From: an uncultured delta proteobacterium
GTDB taxonomy: Bacteria > Desulfobacterota > Binatia > UBA9968
Length of the DNA stretch: 64,000 nt
Assembly: GCA_963847445.1 (NCBI GenBank)
Contig: CAWJZV010000030.1
Coordinates: 160,001-224,000, forward strand
Direction: 5' to 3'
Every line of letters starts with the position of its first letter. The stretch's first letter is position 1. A model generated the notes under the pieces. The model saw only the letters and a list, made by a program, of their open reading frames with translations, was not told where the DNA came from and did not search any database. The position numbers were made by a program, and so were the translations under genes. Shown in pieces: positions 10,875 to 49,280 of this stretch.

Positions 10875-10974
10875 GCGGTTCCAACAGTTCCAAACGTTCC
10901 AGCGGTTCCAGTCGTTGTCCGGCCGGTTCCGAAAACGGTTTGAACGGCTTGAACGTTTGGAACGACTGGAACGC
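10875..10974. repeat. Palindromic element built of 9-bp GTTCNANNC units (family A)
   Basis: gttccaaca-gttccaaac-gttccagcg-gttccagtc...aacggtttg-aacggcttg-aacgtttgg-aacgactgg between convergent genes. Confidence 0.8.
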
Positions 10975-11488
10975 TTATGCGCGGTTTCCGCGCATAAGCT
11001 TGGCCGCGGCCATGATCGACTCGATAATCTTCTTATAGCCGGTGCAACGGCAAAGGTTGCCGTGCATGAAGTGCTTCAGCTCTTCTTCAGTCGGGTTGGG
11101 ATTTTCATCCAACAACGCCTTCGACGCTAACAGCATTCCCGGAGTGCAAAAGCCGCACTGAAAGCCGCCATGCTCGATGAACGCTTCCTGGAGCGGATGG
11201 AGCTTGCCGTCGTCGAGCGAGTCCCTCGATCGTCATAACCGAACGGCCGCGTACTTCAAAGGCCAAAGTCGTGCAAGCGCTCACCGGCCGGCCGTCAACC
11301 AATAAGGTGCAGGCACCGCACACCTGCACGTCGCAGGAGCGCTTGGCACCGGTCAGACCTAAACGATCGCGCACAACATCGAGCAATAGCTCGTTGGGTT
11401 CGACCTCGATTTCTTGCAATCTGCCGTTGACGGTAAAGGACACCGGAATGGTTTGCGCCTCGGCATGCCGGGTCATGGATTTGGACAT
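10975..11488 (-). CDS. (2Fe-2S)-binding small subunit, CoxS/xanthine dehydrogenase family (frameshift near 11217)
   Basis: KRSCDVQVCGACT, SACT; second frame HPLQEAF...QCGFCTPG...GNLCRCTGY. Confidence 0.88.
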
Positions 11489-32176: not shown

Positions 32177-33101
32177 GTGAAAACATTTATCTGGCGCCGC
32201 CTGCTGCTCCTGCTGCCGACTCTCTTCGGCGCGTTGTCATTGGTCTTTCTGCTGGTTCACTTGATTCCCGGCGACCCCGTCGAGGTCATGCTCGGCGAGA
32301 CCGCCAGCGGCGCCGATAAACTGGAACTGCGCCGCGCCCTCGGATTGGATCAACCGCTGGCGACGCAGTATCGAAACTTTCTGACCAAGCTCGCCGCCGG
32401 CGATCTCGGCCGTTCGCTCTTCGAGCAGGCAAGCGTCAGTGCAATCATCGGCCAACGGCTGCCGGCGACTCTCGAACTGGCGTTGTGCGCCATGATCGCC
32501 GCGCTGGCCATCTCGTTTCCACTGGCGTTTCTCGCGGCGCGCCGGCCCGGCAGCCTGATGGATCGCTGCGCTCTATTATTCTCTCTGCTCGGCCTGTCGC
32601 TGCCGAATTTTTGGCTCGGGCCGCTGTTGATGATTCTGTTTTCGATTCAGCTCGGCTGGACGCCGGTGTCGGGCCGCGGCGGACTAGCTCCATGTCATTC
32701 TGCCCTCGCTCACGTTGGGATTGGGCATGGCCGCGATCCTGACGCGCATTTTGCGCGCCAGTTTGATTCAGGTCGCCCGCGCCGAATTCGTCCAAACCGC
32801 CCGCGCCAAAGGCTTAAGCGAACAATCGGTCTGGCTCAAACATATGCTGCGCAACGCGCTGTTATCGGTGGTGACGATCATGAGTCTGCAATTCGGCGCC
32901 CTGCTCGCCGGCTCGTTGATCACCGAAACCGTATTCAGTTGGCCTGGCATCGGCAGACTGACCGTGCAGGCGATCCAGACTCGCGACTATCCGCTGGTGC
33001 AAGGTTGTGTGTTGGTCATCGCGGTCGCCTATGTGCTGGTGAATTTCTTTACCGACATCCTTTACAAACTTGTCGACCCGCGGGTGAGCTATGGCGACTA
33101 G
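32177..33101 (+). CDS. ABC peptide permease, DppB/OppB type (frameshift near 32690)
   Basis: PGDP, GDLGRS, PNFWLG; TARAKGL, ETVFSWPGIG, RDYPLVQG. Confidence 0.9.
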
Positions 33102-33891
33102 AGTCTGGTTCAACACCGGCGTGGCGATCTTGCTGGTCCTGTTAGTCTCGGCGCTACTGGCACCGGTCATAGCGCCGCATAATCCATTACGGCAAAATTT
33201 AGAAAACGACCTGATCGCTTACAGCGCCGCTCATCCGCTCGGCACCGATAAACTCGGCCGCGATATCTTGAGCCGGACGCTTTACGGCACGCGCATCTCG
33301 CTCTCGGTCGGCTTCGCCACCGTGGCGCTCTCCCTCGCCATCGGCTTCGTCGTCGGCGCGCTCGCCGGTTACTTCGGCGGCTGGATCGATTTACTGCTCA
33401 TGCGCCTGGTCGATATCCTGCTGGCGTTTCCCGGCATTCTCCTGGCCATCGCCTTCACCGCCGTGCTCGGGCCCGGGCTCGATCACGTCATCCTCGCGCT
33501 TTGCCTGATCGGCTGGACCGGCTATGCCCGTCTGGTGCGCGGCGAGATCATCGCCCTGCGCGAACGAGAATTCGTCCAAGCCGCCCGCGCCCTCGGCGGC
33601 AGTCCCAAGCGCGTTGTTTTGCGCCATCTGTTACCCAATCTCCTGGCACCGTTATTGATCCAAGCGACTTTCGGCCTCGCCGCCGCGATCATCGCCGAAG
33701 GCAGCTTGAGCTTCCTCGGCCTTGGCGTCGAACCGCCGACACCGTCCTGGGGATCGATGCTGAACGACGGCCGGCAATTTCTCCTGGTCGCGCCGCATCT
33801 CACCACCTATCCCGGGCTGGCGATCATGATCACGGTCTTCGCGCTCAATCTCGTCGGGGACGGATTACAAGAACGGCTTAGAAGGCGATAG
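33091..33891 (+). CDS. ABC peptide permease, DppC/OppC type
   Basis: HPLGTDKLGRDILSR, EFVQAARALG, LSFLGLG..PPTPSWG. Confidence 0.92.
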   Translation: MATRVWFNTGVAILLVLLVSALLAPVIAPHNPLRQNLENDLIAYSAAHPLGTDKLGRDILSRTLYGTRISLSVGFATVALSLAIGFVVGALAGYFGGWIDLLLMRLVDILLAFPGILLAIAFTAVLGPGLDHVILALCLIGWTGYARLVRGEIIALREREFVQAARALGGSPKRVVLRHLLPNLLAPLLIQATFGLAAAIIAEGSLSFLGLGVEPPTPSWGSMLNDGRQFLLVAPHLTTYPGLAIMITVFALNLVGDGLQERLRRR

Positions 33892-34003
33892 TTCAAGCCG
33901 TTCAAATCGTTCAATCGCTGCGCTCCGTTCAAAGCGTTTTCGCATCGAGAGTTTTCCGATCTGAGATTTGAACGACTTGAACGTTTTGAACGACTTGAAC
34001 GAG
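33891..34003. repeat. Family A 9-bp-unit palindrome
   Basis: gttcaagcc-gttcaaatc-gttcaatc...ttgaacgac-ttgaacgtt-ttgaacgac-ttgaacgag. Confidence 0.8.
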
Positions 34004-34069: not shown

Positions 34070-34631
34070 ATGAAATTATACACCAGCCGCACCTGACCCT
34101 ACGCCCACAGGACAAGGATTGTCCTGGCCGAAAAGAACATCCCTTACCAAACGATCGAAGTCGATCTCAAGAACAAACCGGAAGATCTGGTTAAGCAAAA
34201 TCCCTACGGCAAGGTGCCGGTGTTGGTCGACGGCGATGGCGTCATCTACGAGTCGGCCGTGATCAACGAGTATCTCGACGAGAAATTCGCCGACGCGCCG
34301 CTCATGCCGCGCAATCAACTCGACCGCGCCAAGGTGAGGATTTGGGTGGATTTCTTCAACACCCGCGTGCATCCGACGGGAAGCGATCTGCAAAAAAAAC
34401 GTGACCCGGAGAAAGCCCAAGCGCGCATGGATCAACACCTGCGCACTCTCGACGACGCCTTGGCCGGCAATGATTATCTGGTCGGCAATCAGTTCTCGCT
34501 GGCGGATGTCACGTTCATCCCCTTCTACACCCGGCGCGAACGCTACACCGTCGACATTCGACAACTACCCCAACATCAAACGTTGGGCGGAGAAGCTGAT
34601 CGCGCGTCCGCAGGTGGCGCCGACGCTATAA
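34070..34631 (+). CDS. Selenocysteine-containing glutathione S-transferase (C-terminal frameshift near 34558)
   Basis: AAGGAGG RBS, ATG 34070: MKLYTSRT-U(TGA 34094)-PYAHRTRIVLAEK...NPYGKVPVL in frame with ORF 34214; UPYA matches the CPYA/CPFA active site; alternative frame ends YPNIKRWAEKLIARP. Confidence 0.88.
34097..34126 (+). promoter_or_regulatory. Putative bacterial SECIS element
   Basis: Perfect 8-bp stem caggacaa-gga-ttgtcctg 34108-34126, loop 19 nt after the UGA. Confidence 0.72.
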
Positions 34632-34640
34632 CACACCAAT

Positions 34641-34712
34641 TGGAGTGATGGAGTATTGGAGTGTTGGGAACGAATCCCATTACTCCCACCACTCCAATAC
34701 TCCATCTACTCC
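34641..34712. repeat. Family B palindrome of 8-bp GGAGTNNT units
   Basis: ggagtgat-ggagtatt-ggagtgtt...tactccca-ccactcca-atactcca. Confidence 0.75.
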
Positions 34713-35942: not shown

Positions 35943-36001
35943 GCTCAACGTTTGGGTGAGAGGCGCGGTCTGCCGCGACCTTCTCAACCCGATGGTTATC
36001 C
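35943..36001 (-). other. attC site (59 bp) closing the TA cassette
   Basis: Minus strand: R'' GGATAAC - catcg - GG(T)TGAGA ... TCTCACC - caaac - R' GTTGAGC, with one extrahelical base. Confidence 0.82.
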
Positions 36002-36029: not shown

Positions 36030-36368
36030 CTAGTTCGCTATCCCCATCCAGAGTGCTAAAGCTCGGCTCACCCGCAGCACTAAATCATCCTCCAATCGTC
36101 CAATGCTCTGCGCAATGCGAGTGCGAGATACGGTTGTGACTTTGTCAATCATGAGCTGGGACAAGGAACGCAGGCCGTTGACAGGCGACGGTTCCAGAGT
36201 AAGTCGGAAGAGTGGGGCGTCCACAAGCGTACTCGTCACCGGAACAACAGTTACGCTCGCGTGCGTCTCGTTGAACAGGTCTGACTGTACAATCAGCGCG
36301 GGACGGGGCTTGCCATAGTCACCAGGTAGAGCGACTATCACAAGATCGCCGCGCTTCAACCGGTCCAC
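36030..36368 (-). CDS. PemK/MazF-family type II toxin
   Basis: KRGDLV...GDYGKPRPALIVQSD, VPVTS, NGL..SQLMIDK, IGRL. Confidence 0.92.
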   Translation of the reverse strand: MDRLKRGDLVIVALPGDYGKPRPALIVQSDLFNETHASVTVVPVTSTLVDAPLFRLTLEPSPVNGLRSLSQLMIDKVTTVSRTRIAQSIGRLEDDLVLRVSRALALWMGIAN

Positions 36369-36580
36369 CCTTCGGTATCCCGGGTCTCGTCGAGCCAGTT
36401 CAATACCTGTGCCTCAGCGCGCCGATGCTTTGACGCAGCCCGGCTTTGACGGCGGCACTCCTCAGCGAAACCTCGAGCCCTTGTATCTGGGATCCACAGC
36501 TGCACGAGTCGCAGTCCTGCACGTCTCATGCGGGTACGATAACGCTGCACGCTTCGAGCAGGCGAACTTTCCTTTTTCAT
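36356..36580 (-). CDS. MazE-like antitoxin (DUF3018 type)
   Basis: VQRYR.RMRRAGLRLVQLWIPDTRA.GFAEECRRQS; overlaps toxin start. Confidence 0.88.
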   Translation of the reverse strand: MKKESSPARSVQRYRTRMRRAGLRLVQLWIPDTRARGFAEECRRQSRAASKHRRAEAQVLNWLDETRDTEGWTG

Positions 36581-36681: not shown

Positions 36682-36759
36682 GGATAACGCCCCGCATCAC
36701 CTGCCGACGGAAGCGGGCGAAGCCTGCTGTAGCCGGTCAGGTGCATGCGGATGTTCAAG
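36682..36759 (-). other. attC site whose R'' box is interrupted by the mobile element
   Basis: Minus: AAC-atccg-CATGCACC...GGTGATG-cggggc-GTTATCC; R' GTTATCC complements R'' GGATAAC of the downstream TA cassette. Confidence 0.82.
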
Positions 36760-36859
36760 TAAGCCGCTGCGCGGCAGTTAATCCGTCCTGACAATCGATT
36801 CTGTCCCACACCATCGATCTTCGATAAAAGTCTCCTATCTTTTCAGAAGGAGAACGTTT

Positions 36860-37750
36860 ATGAACGATTGGTATCAACGCATGGTCGCTACTCTGCAACT
36901 CAATGGGAAAGGAGAACGAACTCAACAAGCCTACACCCGCGCGGTCCGTATGCTCTCTGAGTTCTACGGCAAAACACCGGATCTGGTCTCGGAACCCGAG
37001 CTCCAAGAATACTTCCTCCACCGAAAAAACGTCAACCGCTGGTCACCCAAGACCATGCGCATCTGTTACTGCGGAATTCGCTTCTTCTACGTCAACGTTC
37101 TCGCGCGCGATTGGCACATCCTCTCGATCCTGCGCGCTCAGAACGAACACCGCCTACCGGCCGTCCTGAGCGTCGAAGAGGTCCGAAGCATTTTGGCCCA
37201 CGTCAAAACCTTCCACAACCACGTCTATCTTTCCACCGTCTACTCCTGCGGCCTGCGCCTCCACGAAGGCCTTCATCTCGAAGTCACCGACATCGACAGC
37301 CAGCGCATGATGATCCATGTCCATCGCGGCAAGGGCGCCAAGGACCGCTATGTCCCGCTGCCTCAGTCGACTCTTCATTTGCTGCGCCAATACTGGCGCA
37401 CGCACCACCATCCCCAGTCTTCTCTTCCCAGCTCTTGGCCGCAAGCGGCACAGGCGCCAAAGCAGGCGCTCCATCCCATGGCGAAAAGCAGCGTCCAGGG
37501 CGCCTTCCGCCGTGCCAAGTGGGAGGCCGGCGTTCACAAAAAAGGCGTTTCGATCCACACCCTGCGCCATTCCTACGCCACCCATCTCCTCGAAGCTGGC
37601 GTCAACCTGCGCGTCATCCAACGCTACATGGGCCACGCTCGACTGGAAACCACCATGCTCTATCTCCACTTGACCCAGAAGGGACAAGAAGATGCCTGTC
37701 AGCTGATCAATCACGTGATGGAGGGACTCGATCATGACCTCCATCCGTGA
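36860..37750 (+). CDS. Tyrosine recombinase with IntI-like N-terminal SAM-like domain, lacking the IntI-specific insertion
   Basis: LPAVLSVEEV, YSCGLR, GKGAKDR, HTLRHSYATHLLE, MGH, TMLY; probable compensating indels near 37418-37452. Confidence 0.92.
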   Translation: MNDWYQRMVATLQLNGKGERTQQAYTRAVRMLSEFYGKTPDLVSEPELQEYFLHRKNVNRWSPKTMRICYCGIRFFYVNVLARDWHILSILRAQNEHRLPAVLSVEEVRSILAHVKTFHNHVYLSTVYSCGLRLHEGLHLEVTDIDSQRMMIHVHRGKGAKDRYVPLPQSTLHLLRQYWRTHHHPQSSLPSSWPQAAQAPKQALHPMAKSSVQGAFRRAKWEAGVHKKGVSIHTLRHSYATHLLEAGVNLRVIQRYMGHARLETTMLYLHLTQKGQEDACQLINHVMEGLDHDLHP

Positions 37751-38827
37751 AATCTTCACCACCTTCGGCCCCGAGTATCTGCAACGCTACGCGACGACCA
37801 TGCCCAAGCACCCATCGCAAAGTCATCGATGCCATCATGGCTTGTCGCACCGAGGCCTGCGGCATCGCTTTCTATCAGTGCGATGGCTGTGCTGAGCCGC
37901 AACAGTTCTTCGTTTCTTGCGGCAATCGCCATTGCCCTACCTGCCAGTACACTAAAGCTCAGCAGTGGCTCCAAACCCGGATCCAGCGCCAACTGCCGGG
38001 GCATCACTTCCTGCTCACGTTTACCGTTCCAGAACAACTGCGTTCTTTCATGCGCCAACACCAGCGCGTCGGTTACTCGGCTCTGTTCAAAGCTTCTTCC
38101 GATGCCATCAAAAAACTAGCCACCGATCCAAAGCACATCGGTGGTGATCTGCCGGGCTTCTTCGGTGTGCTGCACACCTGGGGTCGAACTCTGCAGTACC
38201 ATCCCCACATCCACTACGTCGTTTCCGGTGGCGCTATGCATTCCTCCGATGGCTCCTGGCATCCCTCCAAAATCGATTTCTTTCTGCCGGTCCAAGCGCT
38301 CTCGATCATCTTCAGGGCTAAGTTCCGCGATCTGATGAAACAAGCAAAACTGTTCGATCAAATCCCACCCGAGCTCTGGCAGATTGCCTGGAACGTCAAC
38401 TGCCAAGCGGTGGGCTCCAGTCAAGCCACGCTAAAATATCTCGCCCCTTACGTCTTCAAAGTCGCCATCTCCAACTCGCGCATCGTTGGTGCCCGCGATC
38501 GCACCGTGCTGATTCGGTATCGCAAATCTCACAGCCAGCGCTCTCGAATCCTGGCTCTTGATGTTATCGAGTTCATCCGCCGCTTCCTCCAGCACGTGCT
38601 GCCCACCGGCTTTATGAAAATCCGCTACTACGGCTTTATGAACGCGCAACTGTAAGATTGCGCTCGAACGGATTCGTGGCCTGATCGAATTGAGCTACGG
38701 CTTCGCTATCGATCTCCCCGTCCCTGAGATCGAGCCCCCTCGCCGCAGTACCTGCCCAAGTTGCGGCGGGCTGCTCAAATTCCGCTCGGTCCTGCCATCG
38801 ATGAAGATTCTGCGCCGCTCGGGCTAG
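37734..38827 (+). CDS. IS91-family (Y2 HUH) transposase with Zn-binding domain (frameshifts near 37808 and 38650)
   Basis: CRT..CG, SCGNRHCPTCQ, FTVP, LHTWG..L.YHPHIH, YLAPY, EFIRRFLQHVLP.GF.KIRYYG, C-terminal CPSCGG. Confidence 0.9.
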
Positions 38828-39180
38828 CCGCCCATTCCCTTCAACCAATTCTGTTGGATTTCCAAATTGTTGCCCTGCTCGCTGCGGCCTGAAGGAGGCA
38901 GACGCCGAGCTGCGCTGACTTTACCGATGGCGGAGTTCCGATTCACTCTAGCTGCGGCAAATTCGAGCAGAACAAATAAATCTAAACACTCTCTACCCTG
39001 ACCATTTTCGCCGCGCACCGCAGTTCACCATGTGATTGGACCGCCACCCCCTTCGGCGCAAATCACCGACCACAACCTTTTCCCTTATATTGTTCCTGCC
39101 CGCCTTCATCACGGGCTTCTTGAACACCGGATTGAAACGACTCGGAAGTCGTCTCAATCCTTACGGGTTAGGCCACGTCT

Positions 39181-39489
39181 TCATGTCTTCAAAACTCGAC
39201 CTCGTCCGACAACTCGCGGGCCTTCGCGAACTGTAAACTCCGCTCCTGGCACGAGAGGAGAATAATCAACGTTCGGATGATAAACCAAACCCAGAGTCGC
39301 CGTGAATGAACTCTGCGCTTGGACAGACTTTGGCGCGGACAAAAACATTACACCAAGATACTCGCCCTCGCCAACAACGAGATGAGGACGATACAAAGTA
39401 GGCGTGGTCAAAACAGGCGGCTGCTCTCTCCCGCCTTCCGCCTTGGTGAAGAACGCCATCTCAACTTCAATCTTGGGAACGTCGTGCAT
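39181..39489 (-). CDS. Cassette ORF, EF-Tu C-terminal-domain-like protein
   Basis: TKAEGGR..P, YRPHL, FTVREGPRVVGRG.V resemble EF-Tu domain 3; bounded by GTTAGGC (39509-39503) and GCCTAAC (39173-39167). Confidence 0.72.
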   Translation of the reverse strand: MHDVPKIEVEMAFFTKAEGGREQPPVLTTPTLYRPHLVVGEGEYLGVMFLSAPKSVQAQSSFTATLGLVYHPNVDYSPLVPGAEFTVREGPRVVGRGRVLKT

Positions 39490-39502: not shown

Positions 39503-39560
39503 GCCTAACTATTAAGTATACTGCCGGCATTTCCGGCGGGTTATCCAAGCGTGTAAATTG
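39503..39560 (-). other. attI-like site at the head of the array
   Basis: Minus: ...cagtatacttaata-GTTAGGC; AT-rich, no attC palindrome upstream; core matches R'' of the first cassette. Confidence 0.55.
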
Positions 39561-39800
39561 CTAAGAACAAAATCGACTGTAATATCGGTCAACAAGTCGC
39601 AGCTTGTCAATCTCTTCTCCGGGCAAACGCTGGCCGTGCGGCGGGGTATCCAGATACCAGCCCGCGGTATAGCTCGCTCGAAACCTTTCGGTCGGCCGAC
39701 AAGCACACGAATCACCGGTAACAAGCCGCGTAGTCCACTTTTCCTCAAATTCACCTCGTATCGTGCAGCTCGTCATGGTGACGTTATCCAATTGTCTCGC

Positions 39801-41258
39801 TTACTCCACCGTCCTATCCCGCCGATCCGCGCCGCGCAGCGCTGAAGTGACGATGGCGATCGCCGCCAACCCGGCGATGACCGTCCACGAACCCTGAAAC
39901 GCATTGACGAACAATCTCGGCATTGCCGCCCCACTGGGTATGCGGCGGCACCACGGCGCTCGCCATGCCGTAGATAGTTCAGCCAGCGCATGAACAGCAC
40001 GCTGCCGACGGCCACGCCCATCGCGTTGGCGATGTTGGCCGAGGTCAACGACAGGCCGCTCACCGAGCCGATGTGGCGCGGTTCGACGGCGTTGAACATG
40101 CCGCTCAGATTGGGCGACTGAAACAGCGACCAGCCCAAGCCCAACAACATCAGCGGCGCCATCACCGCGGTCTGGCTGCTACCCGATCCGAGGAGCGCGA
40201 AGCCGACCATGCTGGCAGCGGTCAGTGTCGAGCCGACGGTGCAAAGCATGCGCGATCCCAATCGATCCGCCAGCCAGCCGCCGATGGGGGCAAGACAAAC
40301 GATCACCAGGGAAAAGAAGATCACCGTCAATCCCACCTGGGTCGGCGTGTAGTGGAGAATCCCCTGCAAGTAAAACGGCAAGAGAAAAAACGTCGAGGTA
40401 TGCGACAGCGAGACGAAGAAATGGCTCAACATGCCCGGCGGTAAGCAAGCGGACTTTGAAAAGCGAGAGATCGAGCAACGGCGCCGGATTGCGCCGCTCG
40501 AAGTAGAGCAACAAACTCACCGAGATCAATGACACCACGACTGCCAGCGCCGGAAGAGACCGAAGCCGCTCTTGGCCACCTGCTGCAGGCCGACGATCAA
40601 AGCGACTACGGTCGTGAGCAACGTAATCATGCCAAGCGGATCGATAGAGTAATCGCGCTTCTCGGTGACGGTTTCCGGGAGAATTTTCCACGCCATCATT
40701 GCCGCCGCCAGCGCCACCGGCAGGTTCATGAAAAAGATCCAGCGCCAGCCGATGGTATCGACCAAGAACCCGCCCACCGACGGGCCGGTGATGTAGCCCA
40801 GATGAAACGACATCGACATCATGCCCAGGGCGCGGCCGCGCCCTTCTCTGGCGTAGAGCGCCGAGGCGATGGCCCGGCCGTTGGCCAGTACCAGCGCGCC
40901 GCCGATGCCTTCGATCGCGCGAAAGCAGACGATCAACCATAGATACGGACTCAGACCGCAAGCCGCCGAGCCGATGCCGAGCATGACGAAGCCGAGAGTA
41001 TAGAGCCCCTTGCGGCCGAGCTTGTCGCCCAGGCGCGCCATGCTCAAGACCAGACCGACGATGGTCAATTGATACGCCAGCGGAATCCACTGCACCGCCG
41101 CCATCGAAGTGTCGAAATGCAGCGAGATCGTCGGCAAGGCGACGTTGACCGAGCGCGAATCGAGCGCGCTCAAGAAACTGCCCGAGGCAAACATTCGCCA
41201 GAGCGAGCCGTTGGAGATTCGGAGTTAAAGTTGTTTGCGCCATGTCGTTGCTTGCCAT
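39801..41258 (-). CDS. MFS transporter, DHA2/EmrB-like (several frameshifts)
   Basis: VNVALPTI, RLGDKLGRK, GPSVGGFL..GWRWIFF.N.P, PLLDLSLF, GWLADRLG, QSPN. Confidence 0.87.
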
Positions 41259-49126: not shown

Positions 49127-49280
49127 CATTCAGTTCCAACAGTTTCAATTGTTCCAGTGGTTCCAGTCGTTCAGAAGACGGACACGAATCAGCTCTTAAA
49201 CTTTGCGACCTTTGCGTTCTCTGCGGCCAATCCTTCCGATTCCGACTTCTTCTCTCTGCGAACTCCGCGTCTCAGCGGTG
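49127..49280. repeat. Tandem 9-bp-unit repeats (family A half element plus CTCTGCG units)
   Basis: gttccaaca..gttccagtg-gttccagtc; ctttgcgac-ctttgcgtt-ctctgcgg; ctctgcgaa-ctccgcgt-ctcagcgg. Confidence 0.65.

Follow-up and report, generated by a model that had tools for sequence, protein, structure and literature searches.

An IS91-family element with an IntI-like recombinase gene, inserted at the R'' GTT of an integron attC site, and the preference of its relatives for the same position

The stretch of DNA analysed here, called the window throughout, comprises 64,000 nucleotides of an uncultured delta proteobacterium (contig CAWJZV010000030.1, positions 160,001 to 224,000). It contains an element of 2414 bp, which encodes a tyrosine recombinase and a two-tyrosine (Y2, HUH-type) transposase of the IS91 family, and which interrupts an attC site in a small array of integron cassettes. 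The initial annotation, made from the letters of the window, proposed an attC-targeting rolling-circle element that is integrated by its own recombinase or by a host integron integrase (IntI). Targeting is borne out by the boundaries and the attC enrichment that related copies share; integration by a host IntI is unlikely, because no intI gene of this genome scores over the cut-off and the site is not the IntI crossover. The element and the attC that it interrupts, called attC 'B', consist of the following parts (window coordinates).

36682-36755, + strand: larger left part of attC 'B' (bottom strand), with R' GGATAAC, L' CATCACC, loop, L'' GGTGCATG with unpaired bases, spacer CGGAT and the target GTT
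36756-39169, + strand: inserted element, 2414 bp; one of the flanking GTT triplets, either one, belongs to it, and its boundaries are those of the relatives' copies
36756-36777, + strand: left end, oriIS-like; CAAGTAAGCC, then the hairpin GCCGC-TGC-GCGGC, kept in relatives to about 50% transposase identity
36860-37750, + strand: tyrosine recombinase gene, 296 amino acids as read; Pfam Phage_integrase 1.7e-34, Phage_int_SAM_4 3.8e-20
37734-38827, + strand: gene of the IS91-family Y2 (HUH) transposase, lying in three frames; PF04986 Y2_Tnp 7.2e-55, PF14319 Zn_Tnp_IS91 8.2e-23; 363 amino acids in relatives
39113-39169, + strand: right end, terIS-like and attC-like; box GGGCTTCTTGAAC at 39113-39125, hairpin arms at 39129-39141 and 39148-39160, spacer TTACGG, GTT
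39170-39173, + strand: AGGC, the remainder of R'' of attC 'B', assigned by sequence; the right-flank consensus over 130 junctions is A-G-R-C

Both junctions quoted in the initial annotation are present in the sequence as written. The left junction reads ...GGTGCATGCGGAT-GTT-CAAGTAAGCC, with the GTT at 36753-36755, and the right junction reads ...CAATCCTTACGG-GTT-AGGCCACG, with the GTT at 39167-39169; the triplet is, as had been claimed, the sole sequence common to the two. Excision of 36756-39169 (2414 bp) restores, again as proposed, a canonical attC whose bottom strand is the + strand of the window: GGATAAC (36682-36688), a 6-nt spacer, CATCACC, the loop, GGTGCATG (36740-36747), CGGAT, GTT and AGGC (39170-39173). 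An attC, as defined in PMC5027507, has an R' of the form RYYYAAC and an R'' of the form GTTRRRY, together with an L box, spacers of 5-6 nt that stay unpaired, and extrahelical bases, 6 bp apart, on the arm opposite the AAC. AttC 'B' agrees with the published description of the bottom strand in its boxes, spacers, L stem and extrahelical bases: the AAC stands on the 5' arm, the spacers are 6 and 5 nt long, and the 3' arm carries an unpaired T and an unpaired C with CAGGTG, six paired bases, between them.

Two home-made tools were used to recognize attCs. The first is a structural scorer of the bottom-strand type, which requires, in order, AAC, a spacer, a stem whose only bulges are on the 3' arm, a second spacer and GTT, and for which 9 was taken as the threshold; the second is a covariance model, R1, whose seeds were 23 uninterrupted attCs, none in contact with an element and some adjacent to intI genes. 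A stricter scan, requiring six of seven R''/R' pairs, returned nothing in the window and was replaced by the scorer based on AAC/GTT and the L stem, because in an array the two R boxes of a site derive from different cassettes and are not bound to be complementary. The scorer gives attC 'B' 11.0, with two bulges on the 3' arm. In the 64-kb window R1 has only two matches at E<=0.1, one to the intact attC 'A' described below, which is a seed of the model, and one to 36682-36759 (23.6 bits, E 0.012 in a search of 563,509 bases); the latter ends at the element's first bases, and its score was obtained with element sequence as the last 4 bases. An uninterrupted attC of the same type is found in a genome of the same genus (L174, 1498-1576), where it is 88% identical over 71 nt, continuous through ...GCATGCGGATGTTAGGCC, and scores 32.9 bits with R1. 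By its boxes, spacers and stem the interrupted target is a real attC. A further attC of this type, at 1501-1566 of L173 (genome G014), diverges after ...GCATGCGG and has no GTT, which may reflect another kind of insertion, or a deletion, at R''.

The surroundings of the element form an array of two cassettes, ORF102 and MazEF, with the following features.

35943-36001, + strand: attC 'A', intact, bottom strand GCTCAAC...GTTATCC; closes the MazEF cassette; scorer 12.3; R1 seed, 49.8 bits
36030-36368, - strand: MazF; Pfam PemK_toxin 8.2e-24
36356-36580, - strand: MazE, forming with MazF a toxin-antitoxin cassette; Pfam MazE-like 1.1e-22
39181-39489, - strand: ORF102, cassette open reading frame (ORF) of 102 amino acids without a Pfam family; its stop lies 7 nt before R''
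39503-39546, - strand: 'site C', holding the GTTAGGC that opens the ORF102 cassette; not a canonical attC and without an R1 match

The relation of the element to this array is the one first described: R'' is complementary to the cassette-opening GTTAGGC (minus strand, 39509-39503) and lies 7 nt beyond the ORF102 stop, and both element genes, on the + strand, oppose the cassette genes MazE, MazF and ORF102 on the minus strand. The identification of GTT with the integron crossover triplet holds for the GTT of R'; it does not hold here, since the target triplet is the GTT of R'' on the bottom strand and therefore not the canonical IntI crossover point. No integron integrase over the TIGR02249 cut-off is present in the window's own genome (91.8% complete). 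In the genus, 9 of 31 genomes have such an integrase (8 of 30 if the unpublished G005 is left out), and the class of attC 'A' adjoins genuine intI genes in two same-genus loci (L180, L183). The array is a small two-attC cluster without an integrase and not a complete integron. Among 40 relatives searched in addition to the own genome, none contained the exact ORF102 and MazEF cassettes, the attC and 'site C' being the only matches. No Rfam family reaches its gathering score in the window.

Since the own genome holds a single copy of the element, the boundaries were taken from relatives. These were gathered by transposase protein only (the best 80 of 530 confirmed in genomes and the best 80 of 583 in metagenomes), and therefore the flanks could not bias the choice of loci; the related copies are not fully independent, and each counted junction has a different flank. 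Collecting homologous recombinase and Y2 pairs and rebuilding their sites, a check that had been suggested beforehand, gave the same boundaries and a strong enrichment of attC/GTT by the home-made scorer and covariance model. With a slash for the boundary, the left ends of the family read GTT/CAAGTAAGCCGC... and the right ends ...TCAATCCTTAnnGGTT/, and in five genomes with identical copies within one genome they are GTT/CAAGTAAGCC and ...GGTT/. The same ends were found in 55 end pairs (80 genome loci and the window), and they are kept down to about 50% protein identity. An ORF of the size of the recombinase (at least 250 amino acids) follows 110 of the 116 left ends found, and the transposase histidines and the tyrosines Y235 and Y239 are invariant in 15 relatives.

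Two other interpretations of the boundaries were considered and rejected. First, the pair of GTT triplets could have been a 3-bp target duplication; against this speak locus L026, where the left triplet is ATT and the right triplet GTT, and locus L108, where a single GTT separates a right-end unit from the left end of the element. The unequal triplets of L026 differ at the first base only, which fits a cut after base 1 or base 3 alike. Second, the attC-like left flank could have been part of the element; such flanks vary in sequence and in length, the remainder of R'' lies across the element, and intact homologues exist.

The rebuilt sites reach a score of at least 9 in 17 of 43 cases, and the unique left junctions with a flank of at least 110 nt do so in 40 of 98, compared with 23 of 3000 random GTT sites (0.77%) in the window's genome. 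With R1, 125 matches at E<=0.1 were obtained in 835,388 bases, and among the 122 that were tallied (three in L173/L174 were left out) 45 end exactly at the left end of an element, corresponding to 41 of the 98 unique junctions. One or the other tool is positive for 48 of the 98 junctions, all of which belong to the 84 junctions of GTT type, and at locus L080 paralogous intact attCs are present in the same array. Orientation is uniform. In 39 of the 40 high scorers the bottom-strand pattern beats its mirror pattern, the unpaired bases being on the arm opposite the AAC, which is a mark of the attC bottom strand (PMC5027507); the exception is an insertion behind another right-end unit. The other R1 matches are on the element's strand in 73 of 77 cases (20 of the 77 are seeds), and an ORF of at least 60 amino acids on the opposite strand, with its stop at most 45 nt away, accompanies 16 of 27 sites as against 443 of 3000 controls. 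To the right of the insertion, RRRY follows in 42 of 130 junctions, a set that includes loosely matched ends. Read on the bottom strand of attC, insertion is thus found preferentially, and in one orientation, behind the GTT of R''; this places the element between the stop of a cassette and the body of its attC, in antisense to the cassettes.

From these comparisons of sequences it is very probable that the clade targets attC as such. Several observations count against this. First, 50 of the 98 junctions are negative by both the scorer and R1; some of them look weakly attC-like by eye, and others (L070, L024-L026) are clearly not attCs. Second, the copies in two Nitrospirota genomes are located in ordinary AT-rich DNA. 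Third, both tools are home-made and are not the attC model of IntegronFinder. As about half of the junctions are not called attC by either tool, and some clearly are not, attC is a preference and not a requirement. The attC-positive loci are labelled, in the titles of their records, as Thermodesulfobacteriota/delta-proteobacteria, Nitrospirota, Gammaproteobacteria, Rokubacteria and SAR324. An intact copy is present in the complete genome of the cultured Syntrophus buswellii DM-2 (L069), and metagenomes contain thousands of close protein relatives; the plasmid collection contains no close ones, the best of 3713 matching records being 40.8% identical.

The ends of the element themselves have attC-like properties. 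The last 57 nt contain, in order, the box GGGCTTCTTGAAC, 3-4 nt, a hairpin of 12-14 bp, 6-7 nt and GTT. In the hairpin 88.3% of 727 cells are paired and 7 of 14 pairs are changed on both sides; none of 500 shuffles reaches the observed score and all slid controls score lower. Apart from one additional base, the box GGGCTTCTTGAAC is complementary to the triplet and the ten bases with which the left end begins, and this relation is exact in 47 of 68 distinct end sets; the complementarity is perfect over 7 bp and extends over 12-13 nt. Brought together on one strand, or in a circle, the ends of the element would recreate a site that resembles attC in having an R box, a stem and unpaired spacers. 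Such an attC-like hairpin, made of the right end and the first bases of the left end and showing compensatory changes, is a new observation. R1 at E<=0.1 has no match inside any element, the right end included.

In one lineage (L029, L038-L045) the AAC of the box is changed to AAT, the triplet of the right end to ATT, and the targets likewise to ATT. None of the targets of this lineage is attC-like, and they have no hairpins; the recombinase is kept. The linked change of box, triplet and target suggests, at the level of sequence comparison, that the triplet is read by pairing.

Right-end units of 49-58 nt also occur alone or in tandem (L034, 5407-5458; L050, 4236-4289; L108, about 290-347). 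In L108 the AAC box of the unit differs (ACATAAC), and the unit is followed by an inserted full element. In addition, one class of natural attCs, GGTGAGAGG...CCTTCTCAA(C/T)CC, represented by attC 'A' of the window (35943-36001), L180 (639-698), L183 (3754-3813) and L110 (1480-1539), has a 3' arm and spacer much like the right-end arm GTCGTCTCAATCC of the element. The right end may derive from this attC class, or mimic it.

A second new observation is that, among solved structures, the recombinase is closest in sequence to IntI4, the integron integrase of Vibrio (2a3v, E 4.2e-33), but lacks the IntI-specific insert. The alignment falls into two parts, leaves out IntI4 residues 174-241 and shows the catalytic motifs. 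The integron integrase model TIGR02249 gives a similar picture: the recombinase of the window scores 174.8 bits and four copies score 169-181 bits, under the cut-off of 265, the match again consists of two stretches and skips model positions of about 180-230, and the score is about equal to that of an archaeal XerA model. Recombinases borne by IS91 elements have been described as an 'Integron-like' subgroup, the closest homologues of IntI and without the IntI insert (available text of 10.1101/542381). Judged by its sequence, the recombinase is IntI-like and not an IntI, as it is without the IntI-specific insert and under the cut-off.

Position, orientation, attC enrichment and end structure, as described above, are observed; all the chemistry of integration is what we infer. 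The reading that we favour, with confidence that is evenly divided, is that this chemistry is performed by the Y2 transposase, by analogy with IS91. The transposase would nick the + strand after the GTT at the oriIS-like left end. The + strand would then be peeled off or replicated, with termination after the GTT beyond the terIS-like hairpin of the right end, and it would be transferred to a single-stranded target that presents AAC, a short unpaired spacer, a hairpin, a spacer of 5-7 nt and GTT. The folded bottom strand of attC would mimic the right end of the element, and since the two share this geometry the transposase would treat attC as a pseudo-end. The recombinase would be accessory; it might bind the folded site, resolve tandems or circles at the attC-like junction, or give a second route.

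The known behaviour of IS91 is the basis of this scheme. As far as the available part of one account goes (PMC13181058), transposition of IS91 members leaves the target unduplicated, the tetranucleotide that serves as target is related to the motif cleaved at terIS, a subterminal palindrome of terIS adjoins that cleavage site, target choice is unchanged with TnpA alone, and single- and double-stranded circles with joined ends exist. The + strand of the element fits the scheme: its left end is flanked by the target GTT, its right end consists of a palindrome and GTT, and the triplet of the target is that of the right end.

Four points weigh against the transposase as the integrating enzyme. First, the recombinase is kept in 110 of 116 copies and in the ATT lineage with its non-attC targets, and this retention argues for an essential role, which the transposase scheme leaves vague. 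Second, the complementarity between the box and the left end suits an IntI-like enzyme acting on a folded site and answers no known need of an IS91 transposase. Third, terIS precedes tnpA in the classical IS91 layout; in the present element the transposase gene precedes the ter-like end, and ori and ter were mapped by structure and not by gene order. Fourth, in four metagenome runs, represented by contigs only, which drop rare forms, neither a junction of right end to left end nor an empty site was found (the data for all 24 runs were Logan contigs, with at most 0.38 of the sampled words in each).

It is possible, on a more tentative footing, that the element's own IntI-like recombinase joins the attC-like site of the circle to the host attC at the AAC/GTT of R'', the Y2 enzyme making only the circle. 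The likeness of the recombinase to IntI4, its visible catalytic motifs and the TIGR02249 scores of the four copies agree with such a role, as does the grouping of IS91-borne recombinases nearest to IntI (10.1101/542381, as available). The ends together amount to a complete attC-like site, in which R box, covarying stem and unpaired spacers are all present, the R box has undergone the compensated AAT/ATT change in one lineage, and the target triplet is always that of the element, as a homology-dependent crossover needs; the solo and tandem right-end units (L034, L050, L108) and the retention of the gene point in the same direction. However, an IntI-like enzyme cleaves 5'-AA/C on the 5' arm of the folded strand (PMC5027507, available part), and therefore the recombinase would need the minus strand of the element and the top strand of attC, whereas a rolling-circle copy begun at the left end would be the + strand. 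The recombinase is also without the IntI-specific insert and under the cut-off, the ATT lineage keeps it and yet uses hairpin-free targets, and classical IS91 picks such short targets by its transposase alone (PMC13181058, available part).

A wider proposal, which is doubtful at present, considers the elements as autonomous cassette-like transposons whose IntI-nearest recombinase would act on attC strands of the top type and which would have a common origin with integrons. Either IntI and attC would have been domesticated from an IS91-borne recombinase and a terIS hairpin, or the transposon would have captured an early integron module.

It is very unlikely that a host integron integrase moves the element passively, as a giant cassette whose right end is a true attC. 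On the one hand, the right end has an attC-like architecture, its 3' arm resembles the natural attC class found beside intI genes of the genus, and integrases are common there, as the counts above indicate. On the other hand, the junction is off the canonical crossover (AA/C of R', bottom strand), the right end is unmatched by R1 at E<=0.1, and the own genome has no intI gene over the cut-off; moreover, permuted units with the hairpin at the left would be expected, and a right-end unit precedes only 1 of 98 junctions, the one in L108. Least credible of all is the absence of any attC specificity, where any GTT would suffice and attCs would be met by chance or their arrays would tolerate insertions: the half of junctions that are not attC-like and the Nitrospirota copies in AT-rich DNA agree with it, but 40 of 98 attC-scoring junctions against 0.77% of random sites, 45 of 122 R1 matches ending exactly on a left end, and a single position in attC with one orientation in 39 of 40 sites do not, and since tolerance of arrays would not fix one triplet and one strand, this explanation is strongly disfavoured.

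The copy in the window itself may be a decayed and inactive element, or it may be the product of a noisy assembly. Relative to contigs from four further metagenome runs, at 90-99% identity, it has five extra single bases, three in the recombinase gene (at about 37416/18, 37443 and 37463/64) and two in the transposase gene (at about 37806/07 and 38646). Neighbouring genes also look frame-broken (34071-34648, 39776-41258 and 32177-33145): the N-terminus of a glutathione S-transferase is in another frame, only the C-terminal half of a major facilitator superfamily transporter is in one frame, and a permease domain is partial. These broken neighbours suggest frequent one-base indels in the assembly. 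Near-identical elements in run X1 skip 313-317 nt of the non-coding 38790-39110, which separates the transposase stop from the hairpin of the right end; this part of the element is accordingly variable or dispensable.

Two further kinds of sequence in the window were observed beside the attCs. 'Site C' has AAC and GTT boxes, a stem of 7 bp only and one side without a spacer; together with about 100 nt to its right (39503-39650) it is a repeated module, with four copies in three genomes of the same genus (L176-L179), and it might represent a secondary or attI-like site, or else the terminus of a different element. Inverted arrays of 9-nt TTGAACG/CGTTCAA units, which form long hairpins, are located at 33880-34001 and 10879-10990, with a weaker one at 49142-49173, and an array of the same kind lies beside an intI gene at L185, 12-84 (unpublished same-genus genome G005). 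These arrays are false positives of the attC scorer.

By every feature tested the element belongs to the IS91 family. With IS91, IS801 and IS1294 it shares a transposase with Y2_Tnp and zinc-finger domains, the lack of terminal inverted repeats and of target duplication, a short target motif equal to the motif of the ter-like end, a subterminal palindrome at that end and a hairpin at the other. In contrast to these, its target is a GTT triplet within the structured bottom strand of attC and not a bare tetranucleotide, an IntI-like recombinase gene always lies upstream, the ter-like end is downstream of the transposase, and the ends pair over 12-13 nt. In IS608, of the IS200/IS605 family, an HUH enzyme recognizes a subterminal hairpin, and the cleavage site, which is also the target site, is read through its pairing with bases that lie 5' of the foot of this hairpin. 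A scheme of this kind would suit both the AAC...hairpin...GTT geometry and the joint change to AAT, ATT and ATT targets; IS608, however, has a Y1 enzyme of another family, and IS91-type enzymes are not known to use such pairing.

Group IIC-attC introns use the folded hairpin as their landmark; they consist of a ribozyme and a reverse transcriptase, whereas the element has no Rfam match and no such ORF. Integron cassettes and IntI share with it the AAC...hairpin...GTT rebuilt by joined ends and a recombinase that is nearest to IntI among solved structures. They differ in that the target here is R'' and not R', the recombinase is without the IntI insert and under the cut-off, and the element encodes its own enzymes. 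The element is not a gene cassette, which would be bounded by the canonical crossover G/TT of R' and moved by IntI; its junction is at the target R'' and its hairpin at the right end, unpermuted.

The gene pair and its order are those of known pairs of a recombinase and an IS91 transposase, annotated as 'integrase' and 'IS91 family transposase', ISShvi3 among them (PMC9229058, available part). In plasmid pairs of 36-41% identity (L190, Herpetosiphon pHAU01; L191, Dinoroseobacter pDSHI06) the recombinase gene is preceded by a related hairpin motif (GAAGC..GC..); the right-end motif of the present clade is missing from these pairs. In Shewanella integrons IS91-like elements (n=3) were reported from the variable regions, with ISShvi3 'adjacent to an attC site', and that paper states that no attC was interrupted by an insertion sequence and proposes no targeting (PMC9229058). 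The IS1111-attC elements (ISPa21, ISPst6) also target attC; they do so with a DEDD transposase, as opposed to an HUH transposase and a tyrosine recombinase here, and the genes of the element are without a DEDD domain. For the IS1111-type family, target choice by a guide RNA has been described (PMC11187229, available part). The initial annotation knew of no description of this targeting, and in full-text searches of the literature no IS91-type targeting of attC was found, ISfinder, TnPedia, subscription journals and supplements (Figure S2 of PMC9229058, tables of PMC13181058) being outside the search.

Within the scope of that search, the family is a previously undescribed kind of integron parasite. 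The described attC specialists are of two kinds only, the IS1111-attC insertion sequences and the group IIC-attC introns, and the present family is a third kind, with unrelated enzymes, whose insertions share with theirs the end of attC, the strand and the orientation. The convergence of three kinds suggests that the folded bottom strand of attC is a general and exploitable landmark in living cells. The combination of attC-like ends with an IntI-like recombinase gives an experimental handle on the recognition of single-stranded hairpins and on the origin of integrons, and the intact copy in the cultured Syntrophus buswellii DM-2 makes experiments feasible. If the common origin with integrons were true, the family would offer a definite candidate, open to test, for the long-sought source of attC sites and of the recombination of single strands that IntI performs. 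As the family is abundant, with thousands of protein relatives and members in several phylum-level groups, it must affect the transcription, splitting and decay of cassette arrays in environmental bacteria.

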